Shown: positions 22,181-30,692 of the stretch, piece after piece
Position numbering within the stretch: the first letter of the stretch is position 1
Layout: every line of letters begins with the position of its first letter
DNA from: a virus
Lineage: Duplodnaviria > Caudoviricetes
Strand: one strand, 5' to 3'
IMG/VR virus record: IMGVR_UViG_3300042387_001262
Location: 1 to 30,692 of that record
Length of the DNA stretch: 30,692 nt
Made by a program: the position numbers and the translations under genes
The notes under the pieces: model-generated
Told to the model about the DNA's origin: nothing
Database searches by the model: none
The model's input: the letters and a program-made list of their open reading frames with translations, nothing else

Positions 22181-23962
22181 ATGCCAACCGCACCACTTTA
22201 CAACGGACCGCAAGTCACCCCGGGGCAGTTCTCCGGTGGGCAACTTTCCACCAACGTCGCCGACATGTCGGCCATCGGGCGCGGCATCTCGCAACTGGGC
22301 GAGGGGCTTGGCCAGATGTGGGAGCAGGAGAAGCGCAAGGCCGAGGACGAGCAACTCACGCAGGCGCTTTCCAAGGCACGCGAACTTCAGACCGCCGAAC
22401 TGTACGACCCCCAGGATGGGATCATGTACAAGCAGGGGGGCGACCTGTTCGGGATCGCCTCCGACCGGCTCAACGGGTTTCGCCAGAAACTGAGCGGCAT
22501 CCGCGAAACGCTGGGCAGCGTGCGCGTGAAAAGCCAGTTCGACCGTGCTTCCGATTCGCTCTGGCAGGAGTACAACCGCTCGGTCCAGTTGCGCGTGGGA
22601 TCCGAGCGGGAGAAGACCTCGGAAGCGGTGATGGACGGCTACGTCCGTCAAGAGGTCAACTCGGTATCGACCAACCTGCAGAACAACTTCGAAGCGACCG
22701 TCCCGCACAAGGCAGACGGAGCGCCCGATTTCACCGCCATCGACGATTCGCTGCTTCGCATCGACCTGTCGGTGAAGGACCGCGTGCAGAACGACCCGGG
22801 CGGATTCCCCGAGGGACGTGAAGCCGCGGCACGCAACCTGTCGGAGAAGAAGAAGGGCGAGGCCGTCAAACTCTACATCGACACGGCATTGGCTCAGGGC
22901 AAGACCGCCGAGGCCAAAGCGATGGTGGAGCGCTACGGGGACCTGATTCCGCTCGAGTTCAAGCCCGGGGTGATCAAGGCAGTGGAAGCGGGGACCGTTG
23001 CCGACGAAGCGCAGCAGGGCACCGACGACATCATGTTCGCGGTGGACATCCCGCAAATCAGCCTCACCGAGCAGGAGAAGCAGGCCAACGCACTCATCGC
23101 AAAGCGCTACAGCAAGGACGCGAAGATGCGCGATGAGGTGCAAAAGCGTGTCACCGCGGAGTTCAACCGGCGCAACGCCTTGCACCAGCAAAGCGTGCAG
23201 GACAGCTACAAGGACTACTACGAGCGCTTGAACAAGGGGGAGAAGATCGACCGGCTTATCAAGGAACCTCGCTTCCACACGATGGACCCGGCGCATCAGG
23301 AGATGGTCAAGAAGTTCGCCGAGGAGAAGGAGGCCGGCAAGGACCTGGGCAAGGACCTTGGGAAGATCTACCGCTTCCAGCAGCTTGCCTACAGCAACGA
23401 CGAGCGGGTGCGCGACTCGTTTCGCACGATGGACTTGGCCAAGCAGGGACTCACGCCCAAGGAGTTCGACGAGCTCTCCAAGATTCAGATCCAGCTACAG
23501 AAGGCGCACTTGGACGAGAACGCCAAAGTCGAGTACGAGAGCATCCGCAACGTCCACGAGATTTCCGAGGACGCTGCACGGGTCGCCGGGTTTGCCGACA
23601 AGAGTCAAGAGAAGTACGACTTCCAGAAGCGCCTTGAAGAGCGGGTGCGCGAAGTAGAAAAGCGCAGCGGCAAGAAGGTGGTGCCCGAGGACGTGCAGAA
23701 GATGGCCGACGAGTTGTTGCTCAAGAAGGCCGAAGGGATGCTCTCCCGCGACAAGTACCTCTTCCAGCTAACCCCTGAGGAACTGAACGACCCTCAAGGC
23801 AAGATTGCGTGGGACAAAATCCCCGATGCCGACAAGAATCGGATACGCACGCAGTGGCAGAAGTCGAAGGGTAAGACTCCAGAAAAGGAGGACATCCAGC
23901 GCTTCTACTTCAATGAAATCCGCCTGCGTCAGCAAACCCGAGGCATCAAGTTCCAACAGTAA
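22181..23962 (+). CDS. Internal virion (ejection) protein, gp15-like position
   Basis: 593 aa, predicted helical and charged; MP..P.Y start; sits between the gp14-like gene and the giant protein. Confidence 0.7.
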   Translation: MPTAPLYNGPQVTPGQFSGGQLSTNVADMSAIGRGISQLGEGLGQMWEQEKRKAEDEQLTQALSKARELQTAELYDPQDGIMYKQGGDLFGIASDRLNGFRQKLSGIRETLGSVRVKSQFDRASDSLWQEYNRSVQLRVGSEREKTSEAVMDGYVRQEVNSVSTNLQNNFEATVPHKADGAPDFTAIDDSLLRIDLSVKDRVQNDPGGFPEGREAAARNLSEKKKGEAVKLYIDTALAQGKTAEAKAMVERYGDLIPLEFKPGVIKAVEAGTVADEAQQGTDDIMFAVDIPQISLTEQEKQANALIAKRYSKDAKMRDEVQKRVTAEFNRRNALHQQSVQDSYKDYYERLNKGEKIDRLIKEPRFHTMDPAHQEMVKKFAEEKEAGKDLGKDLGKIYRFQQLAYSNDERVRDSFRTMDLAKQGLTPKEFDELSKIQIQLQKAHLDENAKVEYESIRNVHEISEDAARVAGFADKSQEKYDFQKRLEERVREVEKRSGKKVVPEDVQKMADELLLKKAEGMLSRDKYLFQLTPEELNDPQGKIAWDKIPDADKNRIRTQWQKSKGKTPEKEDIQRFYFNEIRLRQQTRGIKFQQ

Positions 23963-26900
23963 TGGCGCAAGACATTTTCGACACTACACCGGAAGATCTC
24001 CGGGCATCCATGCTCGTCGCAACCAGCACGGACCCAGAGGCGCACGCGAAGGTTGTCAACCTCGCAAACAAGCTCCAGCTTCCGCCAGAACTGGTGGCAC
24101 GCAACCCCCAGTGGGCGCAGCACCAGTCCGACCTGATGCTCGACGCGGAGAAACTCACCAAGGACTACCCTGGCACTGCCAAGTTCCTGTCGGACCCCAA
24201 CCGTGCTGCCGTCTCGCGTGACGAACTCATCCAGCACATGGCGATGGAGGACACGCTTCGCAACGCCGAGTTGCTCGAGCCTGGTCTGTTCGGCAAGGAC
24301 GTGCGCGATGCCATTGCCAAGCAACTGCGCGAGAAGGGTCACCAGATCGAGATCGTCGATGGCTCACGCCCCGTCTCCGAGTGGTTCCCAACGCTCGACT
24401 TCACTGCCGGTCAGGAAGTGGACTCGAGCACCCCGGGCGAGGTGAAGGCGTTCCAGGGCGTGGGCGGGATGGGTATCACGAACCCCGCGCAGGATACGCA
24501 GGACCAGCAGTCCCAGAAGATGGACCAGAAAGCGGTCCAGCTTTACTCGACCCCGCAAGGGTTCTGGGAGCGGATGATTACCGGCACGACCAACCTCGAG
24601 CCGGTCCCCTTTGTTGGCGCCGGCAAGGAGTTGGTGGACGTCTATGCGCTCACCCAGTTGGCCAACCGGGTCAAGGACGGCACCGCTGATGACAACGACT
24701 GGATCGAGTTACTGAAGTACGACAACGAGATCCGACGCGGCACCGACTTCGGCGGAAAGGTCGCCGCGGTGCTTGTGAACCTGCCGGCATTCGCAGGCGA
24801 GATTGCTGCCACCGGTGGCCTGTACACCGCAGGTTCTCAGGCAGCACGCAAGGCCGGGTTGTACGCGGCCAAGAAGATTCTCAACAAGAGCGCACGCGAG
24901 GTCGCAGAAAGCGCCGTGCTGCGCGGCGTGGTCAAGACCGCAGGATGGGTCGCCGGGTCCGCCGTGCAGGCCACCGTGGGGATGCCGCACCGTGTTGCGG
25001 TGGACGCCATGCAGCGCATGGTTCCCCAGTTGTCCAGCATGTCGGTCAACGAACAAGGGGAACTCGAGAAACTCGTGCTCGACTCCGAGGACGGGTTCGC
25101 CTCCGCCATTGGCAAGGCAATCCTCAACCAGAGCATCGAGGTGGGCACCGAGAGCGCAGGCGCGTTCATCGGCAAGGTGACGGGCCTGGAGGCGCTCAAA
25201 TCCGCCGTGGTCACCAAGTGGTTCAAGTTGAACCCGACCAAGGGGTGGTCGCAGTTCAGCGCACTGCTTCGCAAGGCGAAGTGGGACGGGGTGCTCGAGG
25301 AGTTCGGCGAAGAGCGACTGGGCGAGATCCTGCGTGCAGTCACCGGCCTTGAGTCGATGAAGCTCGATCCTGAGCAGTACGCAGTGGAGCTCGTCTCCTT
25401 TGCCGCACTGCCGATGGCAGGCGCCGCGGTGTACGGCCCGGGGATGGTGCGCCAGTCCCGACAACTTGCCGAGCGTGCGCAAACGCAGGTGGAGTTCTTC
25501 CGCGACTTGGGCGCCCAGTCTTCCGAGTCGAAGACCCGCACGCGGGTGCCAGGCATGCTCGGAGCGCTCGGCGACCTTGCCGCGCAGGACGGGCCCGTGG
25601 AGCGTGTCTTTGCCCCCATCGCAGCGTGGGACCAGTATTTCGCGAGCAAGGGGATTGACCCCCGTCAGGTGGCGCAGGAGACCCTTGGGGAGACCGAGAG
25701 TTACGACAAGGCACGCGAGGCCGGTCACGATCTCGAGATCCCGATTGGCGCCTACACCGAGAAGCTTGCCCCGACCGAGCACAACGAAGCGCTCGCGCAG
25801 GTGCTGCGTCTTGGCAGCGTGGACGCACCCAACGTGGTGGAGATGCAGGCCGGCCTGCAGGCAACGCAAGCCTCCGTGGAGGAGATGCTCAAGCTCAACC
25901 AAGACTACACGGCACTGAGCACCGAGAAGCAGACGCTCGCCACCGAGATAACGACCCTGCAGGAGCAGGTCAGCGCACTCCAAGCCCAGGCCGAGCAGCG
26001 CACCGCACGGATGCAGGAGATCCAGTCACAACTCCAGACGCAGGCACCGCAAGCCCTGCAGGAGATTCTGGCCGGCAACGCCCCCGCCGCGGCAGAGTTG
26101 CAGGGGTTGGCGCAGGAGTACCAGGCGCTCGCCCGGCAGGACCAGCAAGCCCAGCAGGCAGGCGCACGCATCGAGGCCATCACCGCTCGCCAGCAGGAAA
26201 TCGACAAGGAGATTGCGCGTATCGAGAAGCGCAACGCGGAAGCCAGACGCTCTGCCCCGGGGCAGGCACCCGAGGTGGTGGACATGGCCGGCGAGGTCTA
26301 CACCCAGTTGATGGCGACCAAGAACACCTCGGATAGCGTGGCCCGTGCGCACGCGAACATGTTCGCCCGGATGGCCTACATCATGGCGAACCGCTCTGGG
26401 ATGAGCTTGCAGCAGTTCAAGGACCGGTTCGTCACGCAGATCCTAGGCAGCACCAAGAACGCCACAGCACCGGCAGGCGTGACGATGTCGCAGGAGGAGC
26501 AGCAACGCGATGCAGACTACCTCGCAGCAGTTGAGGCCGGTGACATGGAGACGGCGCAACGTCTCGTCAACGAGGCCGCGAAAGCCGCTGGGTACAACTA
26601 CGGGCCCGTCTTTCACGGCACTCCGGAAAACTTCGACATCTTCGTTCCACAACTCGCCGAAGCGGCAGGCAAGGGGGTGTACTTCGCCACTGACCGCACT
26701 GCGGCAGAAGAGTACGGTGACCGAGTCGTCACCGCTTTCCTGCGCATCAACAACCCGTGGACGGGACAGTGGGCACCGGAGGACGATGAGAAGGCGCCGC
26801 AGACCGAGGCATACAAGCGTGCGCTCGAGAAGGGCGTGTTCGTTGACGACGAGACGAACACACTGAAATGGCAACGCCTTGCCGATGAGGACTCGAAGTT

Positions 26901-29900
26901 CCTCGGCGAGATTGTCCAGCAGTTGGGCTACGACGCAGTCATCTTCGAGGAGTCGGGGCACCTACCGGCAGGCGATGAGATTGTCGTCTTCAATCCCAAC
27001 CAGATCAAATCCGCTGACCCTATCACCCGTGACGCTGACGGGAATGTCATCCCCCTGTCGGAACGCTTCGACGAGGGGCAGAACAGCATCCTGTATCAGG
27101 GCGAGAACACGACTGGCACCGACATCGCGCCGGCGTTTGAAAACCTGCCCTCTTACAAGCCAAGCAAAGCCAAGGCCACTGTCGCTGAAGTCGATGGCGT
27201 CGCTACGCTTGAGATCAGCAAGGATTCGCAGAAGGACAAGCCGGTCCCAAAGGCGGCATGGGAAAGCGGAAACGAGGTTGCCCTTGGCAGGCTAGACAAA
27301 GCGCTCAAGCTGCTCGACAAGGATCCTGAGCGCATTGCCAGTGGCAAAGGCTTTGTGGAGTACCTTAACGCTGCTGGCGTGTGGGGTGTGGTGACTCCAC
27401 CACCGAGCATGATGCACGTGCTTCTCAACAAGCCAGAGATGTACGTGGATCTTCTCAACGGTGGATACCATGGCACGCGCACCGAGAAAGGCACACAGGA
27501 AGCAGCACGCGCCGGGTTGGATGGCACCGTGGAGATGCGTAACCTGCTGGCAGGAGAGGCTCCGCATCCGTGGGCCGTTGCCTTGCATCACCTCTGGGGC
27601 ATCCTTTCAAGGATGCTGGCGCCGCTCGACCAGGAAGCCATGTGGCTGCGGTTAATCACGCACAAGCCCGTTCTTGATGCCATCCAGAGTTCGATAGACG
27701 GCACTTTCACGCTGACGCCGGAACAGTGGGAAGCACGCGTGAAGCAGGCTCGCATTGAAACCGAGGCGACCTCACAGAAGCGAGGCAACAGCGCCACGGC
27801 AAACGCCAACGCTTTCTACGCGCACCTTGCCAACTGGAACGGCAACTGGGACAAGGTCGCTGACATCTACGCGTCCAAGAGCGCAGCCGAGATGGGGCGC
27901 AGGTTCTGGAAACTGAACCTTGGCAAGGTTGGCATCCGAAACAAGGTCCAGCGTTTCATCGGCCTGACCTTCGGTGTGCCGGGTGTCATCTTGGATCGCT
28001 GGAAGTTCGTCGAGCTCTGGCTTCCAACCATGATGCAGAAAGCCGGCGTCACGCGCCCCAGTGAATACTTTGCCTACTCTGGTGGCCTCACCCCAGAGGA
28101 TCCACTTGGGGTGTATGGTGTGCTTGGTGGGTTGGAAAACGACAACAATGGGCTTTCGCTTGCTCTGTATGAAGGACTTGAGAAGGTCATGCAGAAGGCC
28201 ATTGATGCTTCACCATTGTTGCAACAACACATGGGGCAGCATCAGAATCCTGGGGGAATGCACTGGTTCGGATGGAACGCCATCAAGAACGAGTCGGTGG
28301 GACATTCGTCGCTTGATTTGACCAAGCAGATTATTCAGATTCAGAAGCAGGGGAGTTCAGTCAATGCAGAAACCATCCAACAACTCATCGCCTCTGGAAC
28401 CTTCTACACCGAAGGACTCGCAGGAGCAAAGAGCATCACCCGGTTCGCCATCGAAAACGGCGTTCCGGTCGTCACCACGCGGAGTCGGGATGCCGATGGA
28501 CAACTCGGAGGACTTTCTGGATCCGCAGGAGGACGCGCAGATGGTCAAGGAGGCAGCGGAGAGACTACTGCGCAGCAAGAAGTAACGCTCAACCAGTCCG
28601 TCTTCCCTGAGACGCAGCGCACTCCGCTGCTGGCGATTCATAACATCTCCGGGAGAAACATCCTTAACGCGGCAGAGCTCGGTGGCTTGCCTGTTCCGTC
28701 CATCGGTGTCACGCGCCCCGATGCAGTCTACACCGGGTTCGGTGAGATCTCACTCATCGGCACCAAGGACCTGGCGGACCCGCGCCGCAACCCGGTGTTC
28801 AACGCCGATGCCTACACGGTGCGCTTCCCGCAACCCGAGTACGGCAAGATGAAGCAGGCCGCGGCGAACAAGATCATCAAGCCGCTGCTGCCTTTCCAGA
28901 AACTGTTTAACGACTACACCCCCGGCGAGGTGTGGCAACGCCTGGTGGAGCGTGGAGACGTCGCCAGCGCCATCGACAAGCTCTCACGCTCGGAAGCGGC
29001 AAAAGCCGCGTTCTTGGACTCCAAGGGCATCACGGTTGAACCGGTGATGTACGAACCCGCGATGAACTACGGGTGGTCCAACTCCGACACGCTGAAGGAG
29101 TACCTCACGCCCGAGCGGATGAAGCAGGCAATGGCGGGTGACGAGAACATCCGCCGAGAGCTTGTGCCGGTGGTGGAAGCCGCAATCCGTAAGGACGTTC
29201 AGAAGAAGAACTTGGACCCAGAGGATGCTGAACACCTCGTCAACCGATTCAAAAAGAACGCCTTATCAACGGATGGTGGAGTTGGATTCAACATCCTCCA
29301 CCGCATTGAAACCGACTGGAGTCGAGCGGATAAGAAGCAAGTTGATCTTGGTTCCACCAGAGATGTATTGAACGAAGCGCTGAAGGGGCGCGAGGCTGAG
29401 TTTGAGCAGTGGGTGCAGGGGATGATCCTGGCCGAAGCCGGTGAGCCCAAGCTGACCATTGGCAGGAAGAAGGTGCCGTTCACGCTTGAGAACATCGTCG
29501 ATTACATGACCTCATCCTCGGTGAAGGGGGTGGAGTCCACAATGACCTTCGGCGAGGGAAAAGCCCGTGCGATGTCCGCGGCGAAGATTGCTGACATCGA
29601 AGAGATGCGCAACCGTGCGCAGTCCGAGATTGGCACGAAGGAGGAAGTGGACGCTGCTCGTGAGAAAGCATCTAAGCTGCTTGCAGATTACCGCACCAAA
29701 GCAGCAGAGCACTATGGCTACGCCGATACATGGAGCGCATTTGACGACTCCATGAAAGCGCTCGCTAAGTGGGCGAAAGGTGCGCGGACCACGGCAAACC
29801 TGCAGAAGGCACTCAAGGCCGTTGGGTTTAAGAGCGTACCGCAGGACGTGCTTGAGTTAGGCGTTGAAGCCGGCAAGGCGTTCCTCAACGCGCCGGTCCC

Positions 29901-30692
29901 ATACTTTGAGTCCAAGCCACAACGCTCCGTTGCACTGAGCGAGTTCAAGGCAGCGGTGGTCCCCAGCGACACGCGGCAGGAAGTCCGCCAGGTGCTCGCA
30001 GATGCCGGCGTGCAGGTGTTCGACTACACGCCCTATGACGACGCATCGCGCAGAGCAGTGGTGGCGCAAGCATCGCAGGAGACGCAGACGCTTTTCCAGA
30101 ACGAGAAAAACGCACGCGGGTCTATCTCGTTCAACCCGGCGCAACGTGGTGCTCCCCGGCGTGAGTTCACCATCAGGATGCTCAGCAGTGCCAACGCCAG
30201 CACGTTCATGCACGAGGCCGCGCACTTCTACCTCGAGGTGTTCAACGACCTCGCCTCCGCACCGGACGCGCCTCAAGCGCTGCGCGAGGACTGGAACCGC
30301 ATTTCCAAGTGGCTTGGCCTGCAGGCCGGTGTCCCGATCACAGTGGACCAGCACGAGACCTTCGCCCGTGGGTTTGAGCGCTACCTGATGGAAGGCAAGG
30401 CGCCGGCAGAGGAGGTGCGTGGGTTCTTCGCCAGCATGCGCACGTGGCTTGTCAGGATCTACCGTGACCTGATGAACCTCAACGTGGACATCTCAGACGA
30501 CATCCGCGGGGTGTTCGACCGCATGGTCGCGACCGACGTTGAGATCGAGGCCGCGCAGGCACGCGAGAAAGTCGAGCCGATGTTTGGCACCAAGCCTGAC
30601 GGCATGGAGGAGGCAGCGTGGGAGCGCTACCGCAAAGCCGTTGAGAGTGCGTCCCTGCAGGCCCGTGAGCGGTTACAGACCGAGCTCGAGCG
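23962..30692 (+). CDS. Giant polyvalent internal virion protein (>2,240 aa, 3'-truncated) with ART, glycosylase-like, second ART-like and zincin modules
   Basis: ATG overlaps the upstream TAA; I found no in-frame stop to the window end on manual translation. LPD22-like N-terminus, coiled coil ~25850-26250, FHGT/GVYF/EIVVF, HEAAH at 30211-30225 and HETFARGFERYL. Confidence 0.9.
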   Translation, partial: MAQDIFDTTPEDLRASMLVATSTDPEAHAKVVNLANKLQLPPELVARNPQWAQHQSDLMLDAEKLTKDYPGTAKFLSDPNRAAVSRDELIQHMAMEDTLRNAELLEPGLFGKDVRDAIAKQLREKGHQIEIVDGSRPVSEWFPTLDFTAGQEVDSSTPGEVKAFQGVGGMGITNPAQDTQDQQSQKMDQKAVQLYSTPQGFWERMITGTTNLEPVPFVGAGKELVDVYALTQLANRVKDGTADDNDWIELLKYDNEIRRGTDFGGKVAAVLVNLPAFAGEIAATGGLYTAGSQAARKAGLYAAKKILNKSAREVAESAVLRGVVKTAGWVAGSAVQATVGMPHRVAVDAMQRMVPQLSSMSVNEQGELEKLVLDSEDGFASAIGKAILNQSIEVGTESAGAFIGKVTGLEALKSAVVTKWFKLNPTKGWSQFSALLRKAKWDGVLEEFGEERLGEILRAVTGLESMKLDPEQYAVELVSFAALPMAGAAVYGPGMVRQSRQLAERAQTQVEFFRDLGAQSSESKTRTRVPGMLGALGDLAAQDGPVERVFAPIAAWDQYFASKGIDPRQVAQETLGETESYDKAREAGHDLEIPIGAYTEKLAPTEHNEALAQVLRLGSVDAPNVVEMQAGLQATQASVEEMLKLNQDYTALSTEKQTLATEITTLQEQVSALQAQAEQRTARMQEIQSQLQTQAPQALQEILAGNAPAAAELQGLAQEYQALARQDQQAQQAGARIEAITARQQEIDKEIARIEKRNAEARRSAPGQAPEVVDMAGEVYTQLMATKNTSDSVARAHANMFARMAYIMANRSGMSLQQFKDRFVTQILGSTKNATAPAGVTMSQEEQQRDADYLAAVEAGDMETAQRLVNEAAKAAGYNYGPVFHGTPENFDIFVPQLAEAAGKGVYFATDRTAAEEYGDRVVTAFLRINNPWTGQWAPEDDEKAPQTEAYKRALEKGVFVDDETNTLKWQRLADEDSKFLGEIVQQLGYDAVIFEESGHLPAGDEIVVFNPNQIKSADPITRDADGNVIPLSERFDEGQNSILYQGENTTGTDIAPAFENLPSYKPSKAKATVAEVDGVATLEISKDSQKDKPVPKAAWESGNEVALGRLDKALKLLDKDPERIASGKGFVEYLNAAGVWGVVTPPPSMMHVLLNKPEMYVDLLNGGYHGTRTEKGTQEAARAGLDGTVEMRNLLAGEAPHPWAVALHHLWGILSRMLAPLDQEAMWLRLITHKPVLDAIQSSIDGTFTLTPEQWEARVKQARIETEATSQKRGNSATANANAFYAHLANWNGNWDKVADIYASKSAAEMGRRFWKLNLGKVGIRNKVQRFIGLTFGVPGVILDRWKFVELWLPTMMQKAGVTRPSEYFAYSGGLTPEDPLGVYGVLGGLENDNNGLSLALYEGLEKVMQKAIDASPLLQQHMGQHQNPGGMHWFGWNAIKNESVGHSSLDLTKQIIQIQKQGSSVNAETIQQLIASGTFYTEGLAGAKSITRFAIENGVPVVTTRSRDADGQLGGLSGSAGGRADGQGGSGETTAQQEVTLNQSVFPETQRTPLLAIHNISGRNILNAAELGGLPVPSIGVTRPDAVYTGFGEISLIGTKDLADPRRNPVFNADAYTVRFPQPEYGKMKQAAANKIIKPLLPFQKLFNDYTPGEVWQRLVERGDVASAIDKLSRSEAAKAAFLDSKGITVEPVMYEPAMNYGWSNSDTLKEYLTPERMKQAMAGDENIRRELVPVVEAAIRKDVQKKNLDPEDAEHLVNRFKKNALSTDGGVGFNILHRIETDWSRADKKQVDLGSTRDVLNEALKGREAEFEQWVQGMILAEAGEPKLTIGRKKVPFTLENIVDYMTSSSVKGVESTMTFGEGKARAMSAAKIADIEEMRNRAQSEIGTKEEVDAAREKASKLLADYRTKAAEHYGYADTWSAFDDSMKALAKWAKGARTTANLQKALKAVGFKSVPQDVLELGVEAGKAFLNAPVPYFESKPQRSVALSEFKAAVVPSDTRQEVRQVLADAGVQVFDYTPYDDASRRAVVAQASQETQTLFQNEKNARGSISFNPAQRGAPRREFTIRMLSSANASTFMHEAAHFYLEVFNDLASAPDAPQALREDWNRISKWLGLQAGVPITVDQHETFARGFERYLMEGKAPAEEVRGFFASMRTWLVRIYRDLMNLNVDISDDIRGVFDRMVATDVEIEAAQAREKVEPMFGTKPDGMEEAAWERYRKAVESASLQARERLQTELE
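28490..28585 (+). CDS. Nested out-of-frame 31-aa ORF (MPMDNSEDFLDPQEDAQMVKEAAERLLRSKK)
   Basis: GGAG 5 nt upstream; genome-like GC3-rich codons, while the main frame becomes a GGA-rich Gly linker over the same bases. Confidence 0.45.
   Translation: MPMDNSEDFLDPQEDAQMVKEAAERLLRSKK

Follow-up and report, generated by a model that had tools for sequence, protein, structure and literature searches.

Uracil-DNA glycosylase, usually the host's enzyme, is the target of Ugi, p56 and SAUGI, and its fold differs from the one considered here. Published accounts, as far as they were available, describe these inhibitors as small acidic proteins that block the DNA-binding site of a DNA glycosylase, which is also the kind of role predicted here for a nested phage peptide. 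Partner genes can share the same DNA, and Rz1, for example, lies in the +1 frame of Rz. Among the lambda Rz/Rz1 spanins and their relatives, partner genes are embedded, overlapped or separated in related phages, according to the available text of Kongari 2018 (PMC6139136). The MuF toxins of temperate phages are described in the main text of Jamet 2017 (PMC5576092), where 89.4% of MuF toxin genes precede a small putative immunity ORF and where the word "glycosylase" does not occur. Polyvalent proteins, as portrayed in the main text of Iyer 2017 (PMC5512222), combine domains such as LPD22, ART-PolyVal and PBECR5 in one giant phage protein; that text has zero occurrences of "glycosylase" or "overlap", and in the 12 of 14 passages covered neither cognate inhibitors nor nested genes are mentioned.

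The window analysed here is a stretch of 30,692 nucleotides of viral DNA (IMG/VR record IMGVR_UViG_3300042387_001262), and the system that it carries combines a putative effector/immunity logic of the MuF kind with an architecture of the Rz/Rz1 type and belongs to neither family. Relatives in which the protein ends at the module resemble the MuF toxins in having a structural-region protein, a putative C-terminal effector and a small immunity-type ORF directly after it (PMC5576092, main text). Unlike the MuF toxins, the giant protein of the window has no match to a MuF domain in residues 1-2243 (its final 1070 residues fall beyond the window), its glycosylase-fold effector may be internal, and the putative immunity gene is overprinted. 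The spanins are membrane lysis proteins, whereas the gene described here is overprinted by a linker between domains and is partnered with an enzyme domain. In comparison with Ugi, p56 and SAUGI, its product is a shorter, helical peptide, and the enzyme that it is predicted to block, of HhH fold, belongs to the phage itself. A literature search, made through listings and abstracts with subscription journals mostly absent, found no paper on the module, the peptide or the nesting.

The giant polyvalent gene and its glycosylase-fold module

The features of the giant gene to which we refer are the following.

23962..30692, + strand, giant polyvalent protein gene (continues past the end of the window; its full length is 3312 aa in G001, a complete and near-identical record)
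24004..24267, + strand, LPD22 domain, residues 15-102 (Pfam PF18834, E 3.4e-13)
26608..27018, + strand, ART-PolyVal domain, residues 883-1019 (Pfam PF18760, E 2.6e-19)
27160..28482, + strand, HhH DNA-glycosylase-fold module, about 440 aa (model pLDDT 89)
27943-27945, + strand, putative catalytic Lys, K281 (conserved 1.00 in 48 rows)
27994-27996, + strand, putative catalytic Asp, D298 (conserved 0.98 in 48 rows)
28618..29100, + strand, PBECR5 nuclease-like domain, beyond the linker, residues 1553-1713 (Pfam PF18814, E 3.5e-25)

The gene thus places several disparate conflict domains (LPD22, ART-PolyVal and PBECR5) in one polypeptide, as polyvalent proteins do, and it also encodes a HEAAH motif at 30211-30225. 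Upstream of it in the window are terminase, portal, nozzle and endolysin-like genes, and from this gene order, together with the available text of PMC5512222, the giant protein is likely to be a virion protein that is ejected. The gene just before it (22181-23962) matches PHROG endolysin families and probably encodes a virion lysozyme. Genome-bin matches to the module carry the label of Verrucomicrobia or members of that phylum in 4 of 8 cases, and such bins may be contaminated.

The module itself has no sequence match in Pfam, PHROGs or PDB sequences and no tblastn match in GenBank phages; membership of DUF7178 (PF23802) was considered and rejected, with no profile match at E up to 10 despite language-model look-alikes at 0.93-0.94. 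For its predicted structure, the best VIA-align match is the Thermotoga 8-oxoG glycosylase 3n0u (Z 10.9, rmsd 3.6, 203 aligned residues), a Z value well above the unrelated rows but under the level of about 13 below which matches of helical proteins call for caution. In a wide structure search the best 26 rows are glycosylases or relatives that, in some instances, we take to share the same fold, after which Z drops to 3.5 or less, and Foldseek returned weak matches with glycosylases first (best E 0.16). The likeness to HhH-GPD glycosylases (Thermotoga OGG 3n0u, human OGG1, EndoIII, ROS1) covers the fold over about 200 residues, the HhH Lys and an Asp 17 residues on, the module having the hairpin G-I-[KR]-N-K281 with D298 downstream; unlike the known enzymes it has large insertions, about 11% identity to them and no match at the level of sequence. 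The catalytic roles of K281 and D298 are presumed from motif and spacing in OGG and EndoIII, the bifunctional glycosylase/lyase pattern. We assign the module to the HhH-GPD fold on a moderate structural match, and base excision on DNA would be its putative activity. In composition, the last third of the module (28100-28399) has a GC content of 0.49 as compared to about 0.6 around it, and GGA is more frequent in the module than elsewhere in the giant gene; with the low GC, this could mark an imported cassette.

The nested +1 frame and its relatives

Directly behind the module, the DNA is open in two frames.

28490..28585, + strand, nested +1-frame gene (31-aa conserved core, in which the family motif [FWYML]-P-[AGMCS]-D precedes an acidic stretch and a helix)
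28489..28584, + strand, main-frame Gly/Ser linker overlying the nested gene, residues 1510-1541
28481..28484, + strand, GGAG, also the +1-frame Gly codon of the G-V-G ahead of the motif and a weak SD signal
28364..28489, + strand, open +1 frame 5' of the nested ORF; the ATG at 28364 is another candidate start and would give 73 aa

The GGAG at 28481-28484, the ATG at 28490, the TAA at 28583-28585 and the sequence of the 31-aa peptide were all found exactly as given in a preliminary description of this DNA. That description also reported GC3-rich codons in the +1 frame and a GGA-rich string in the main frame, and both observations hold: over the same bases the +1 frame has a GC3 of 0.84 and the main frame one of 0.28, as compared to 0.76 across all of the giant gene that falls within the window, and GGA makes up 8/10 of the main-frame Gly codons over the nested ORF vs 8/121 outside the module and 10/42 within it. 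Along all 3312 aa of the G001 protein, a GGA/AGA/CGA-rich stretch of this kind occurs a single time. Neither the ART-PolyVal nor the PBECR5 domain (26608-27018, 28618-29100) has a comparable GGA-rich linker behind it, so that a partner of this sort seems to be confined to the glycosylase-fold module. The preliminary description raised the possibility that the acidic peptide mimics DNA. With 8 D/E and 5 K/R the nested peptide is only mildly acidic overall; across its family, the first 22 residues hold on average 7.5 D/E and 0.6 K/R.

The module has relatives in 28 proteins that are similar in length and in 94 that are longer, a sample in which distant relatives are under-represented, and in most of them the protein ends at the point where the linker begins in the window phage. 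The DNA of 111 loci yielded 64 distinct module tails, 63 of them usable once L101, which has 41 bases past the module, had been dropped; L111 (no anchor) and L046 (cut before the peptide) were also left out. In 49 of the 63 the protein terminates at the module and in 14 it reads through into further sequence. A small cognate gene lies directly 3' of the module in 44/49 terminal tails (42 recognized by profile, 2 by motif) and in 14/14 fused tails, always in the +1 frame and including the window phage's own copy, which makes 58/63 overall, with a best background score of 6.4 bits. The expectation in the preliminary description that a +1 ORF would be conserved beside homologous modules is therefore borne out in the fused loci, and in terminal relatives the ORF is mostly a separate gene. 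Standalone copies of this small acidic gene start at the module stop or a few codons off, most commonly with an ATGA overlap; that of L009 begins KTGWPMDNSEDF and shares PMDNSEDF with the nested peptide.

The five terminal tails without a scoring copy consist of three distant, one interrupted and one variant locus, L085 and L099 being among the five. The most distant modules (L098, L102 and L103, at 27-29% identity) lack this peptide family; at each, a small acidic +1 ORF of unrelated sequence overlaps the module stop and may represent a replaced antidote. In L099 the module end is cut near 260-520 and the peptide gene is missing, the ORF that follows the cut being, we presume, transposase-like.

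With a profile made of 40 standalone peptides and no nested ones, the +1 frame of the window is matched at E 9.2e-9, the runner-up among 872 window frames having E 6.3. Applied to the fused tails, the standalone-only profile scores at least 13.6 bits in 13/14 and misses L089; this is the fair test, because a profile of all members is circular for the fused copies. Motif scans of viral contigs gave 25 matches, 22 with the module upstream and 3 in unrelated frames, and one degenerate motif scan for the peptide gave zero matches. The exact string PMDNSEDF also occurs in L114 and L118 at 1801, there as main-frame sequence within a long unrelated protein, and is treated as chance; in L114 it is flanked by what we take to be intein-like sequences. 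Identity of the nested peptide to its nearest standalone counterparts is 42-47%, that of the corresponding modules about 50%. From sequence comparison, we regard the conservation of the nested +1 ORF as coding sequence as confirmed and as beyond chance.

Among fused relatives (n=9), differing codons are synonymous in the +1 frame in 177/404 cases vs 41/440 in the main frame, counts that are pairwise and not independent, come from relatives only and skip L003; the window copy and that of G001 are identical over 28364-28585. Because changes are so much more often synonymous in the +1 frame, it appears that the linker drifts while the peptide is kept. The locus has the properties of an embedded same-strand phage gene: it is contained entirely in a second gene, is read in a different frame, is under selection of its own and has separate forms in relatives. 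If the 63 peptides are placed in the +1 frame, none requires an unavoidable stop in the read-through protein, as compared to 15/63 in the -1 frame; stops being always avoidable in +1 explains the GGA codons and fits the placement of all fused cases in that frame. In the module tree the separate-gene layout predominates, and the fused state requires at least two changes (midpoint root). The preliminary description spoke of a cassette hidden in a structural gene, which is apt for the window phage, where the gene is nested, but not for the family, where it is usually an ordinary gene downstream of a terminal module. Since most relatives end the protein at the module and keep the peptide gene separate, the nested state seems to have arisen as a side effect of fusion by read-through.

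The predicted complex and the probable role of the peptide

Complex modelling, which the preliminary description had put forward as a check, supports the proposed pairing: the module with the nested 31-aa peptide scores 0.84 vs 0.01 for the best control, and the model lays the peptide over the catalytic pocket. The mark for this score is reached by 116/157 solved and 2/215 mismatched pairs and, with alignments of our own, applies here roughly. Three runs share at least 95% of contacts, with a partner pLDDT of at least 78. Module contacts include K281, D298, the hairpin 274-277, R299, W300, H387, W388, W391, N392 and K395; those of the peptide fall in residues 1-10 and 18-26, its N-terminal MPMDNSEDF segment lying over the pocket with K281 and D298. 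The most conserved peptide positions, P2 and D4, sit in this segment, and 23/43 interface positions are at least 90% conserved vs 98/396 overall. The peptide helix packs outside the pocket, and the contacts of lowest error are helix-on-helix (module 236-246 with peptide 18-26). We know of no solved complex of this kind. Conserved pockets attract peptides in such models and binding need not mean inhibition; that the peptide would bind across the module's catalytic site is supported by the modelling.

We consider it probable that the nested peptide is the cognate inhibitor of the glycosylase-fold module, predicted as it is to lie across the catalytic pocket. The module would then be an ejected DNA glycosylase/AP-lyase that damages DNA, and the peptide, translated along with it from one late mRNA, would hold it inactive during synthesis and packaging, thereby sparing progeny DNA. 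In the older layout, the order would have been module, stop and peptide, to which further domains were presumably fused with loss of the stop; the peptide gene may have survived this fusion beneath a Gly/Arg-rich linker, in the one frame in which read-through stops are always avoidable. Of the effector-immunity pair that the preliminary description envisaged, the conserved gene, its linkage to the module, the glycosylase fold and the predicted binding at the pocket are supported; the SD argument is weak, the start may lie upstream, and the cassette is usually not hidden.

A different function for the same peptide, as a co-packaged subunit, chaperone or timer that either stabilises the domain or holds it shut in the virion and is ejected along with it, or else tunes its choice of substrate, rather than as an antidote that stays behind, would lead to the same conservation and the same predicted binding, and the position of the lowest-error contacts, on a helix pair away from the catalytic residues, would suit it. 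We nevertheless think it unlikely, since the most conserved residues of the peptide, P2 and D4, are those over the pocket with K281 and D298, and since a small gene 3' of a phage-borne toxin is generally interpreted as conferring immunity (main text of PMC5576092).

Start site, fusion and biological meaning

The preliminary description took GGAG-N5-ATG as the start signal of the nested gene. The sequence is present but is poor evidence of initiation, SD-like words being scarce at gene starts here: because such a word precedes 1/16 likely gene starts in the window (gene starts surveyed over 2010-23962), the argument for a start at 28490 is weak. SD-like words also precede 43/411 plus-strand ATGs in the window and 8/29 +1-frame ATGs of the giant gene. 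Since SD motifs are hardly used by this phage, the GGAG was dropped as strong evidence for a start.

Standalone genes with the motif (n=45) all start 2 to 23 codons ahead of its aromatic position, which Gly immediately precedes in 25/45; in the window the Met at 28490 takes the aromatic position and is preceded by G-V-G. Over the last 24 codons of the module, the +1 frame has 0 stops in 19 fused loci vs 10.6 expected, and in terminal controls the same stretch has 63 stops vs 51.4 expected, upstream openness being uninformative for the window copy, for which the probability of no stop is 0.86-0.90. Fused relatives do not share a conserved start codon: its position ranges between 0 and -32 codons, and L005, L006 and L054 have no ATG, GTG or TTG within 25 codons. 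With an open upstream +1 frame and variable starts in the fused loci, the ATG at 28364 (73 aa) is as plausible as that at 28490 (31 aa) or 28496. The Asn codon of the Asn-Gly before the module's YYTEG is AAT in 7/8 lineages (L003, L005, L007, L008, L048, L074 and L085), which creates a +1 ATG some 31 codons 5' of the peptide motif; L035 is the exception and has an ATG of its own at -10. In these lineages AAT is only 18-40% of Asn codons. A start codon may thus have been selected within the module's own coding sequence.

The stop-free +1 frame in the 19 fused loci, and the fused loci with no nearby start, would also be expected if these phages reached the +1 frame by ribosomal frameshifting near the module end, which would yield a shortened protein with its inhibitor in cis. 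This is quite improbable. Upstream starts explain the openness, an ATG, GTG or TTG being present in the open +1 frame of every fused locus shown, and the recurrent AAT before YYTEG supplies such an ATG in 7/8 lineages. No common slippery sequence is evident by eye in the fused loci, most relatives encode the peptide separately, and an early shift would delete the last beta strands of the module. The least probable reading is that the gene is functional in relatives and a silent relic in the window phage after a recent fusion: the evidence for selection does come from relatives, and SD use is weak, but the frame and motif are intact with a +1 GC3 of 0.84, the window peptide itself gave the passing complex model, and the fusion is probably not recent because the window module sits on a long branch (0.79) beside a wholly fused clade (support 89/86, moderate).

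The reading that we prefer, an inhibitor made from its own gene, yields a concrete and testable effector-antidote pair in giant phage proteins, whose self-protection is not described in the available portions of the literature searched, and it illustrates a way for an antidote gene to persist through the fusion of domains, in the guise of a linker. A peptide that blocks the pocket of an HhH glycosylase would be a new type of inhibitor, those listed in the sources available acting on uracil glycosylases or deoxyinosine repair, and its co-expression may be what renders the enzyme clonable. Nested genes of such a kind are missed by gene finders. On the broadest proposition we are evenly balanced: that phages inject an HhH glycosylase of an undescribed family as a weapon, guarded by a peptide of ~30 residues that plugs its active site (the first inhibitor for this fold), and that overprinted antidotes make many Gly/Arg-rich "linkers" of polyvalent proteins hidden immunity genes. 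If this is true, immunity genes hidden under linkers would mark which domain of a polyvalent protein is dangerous.
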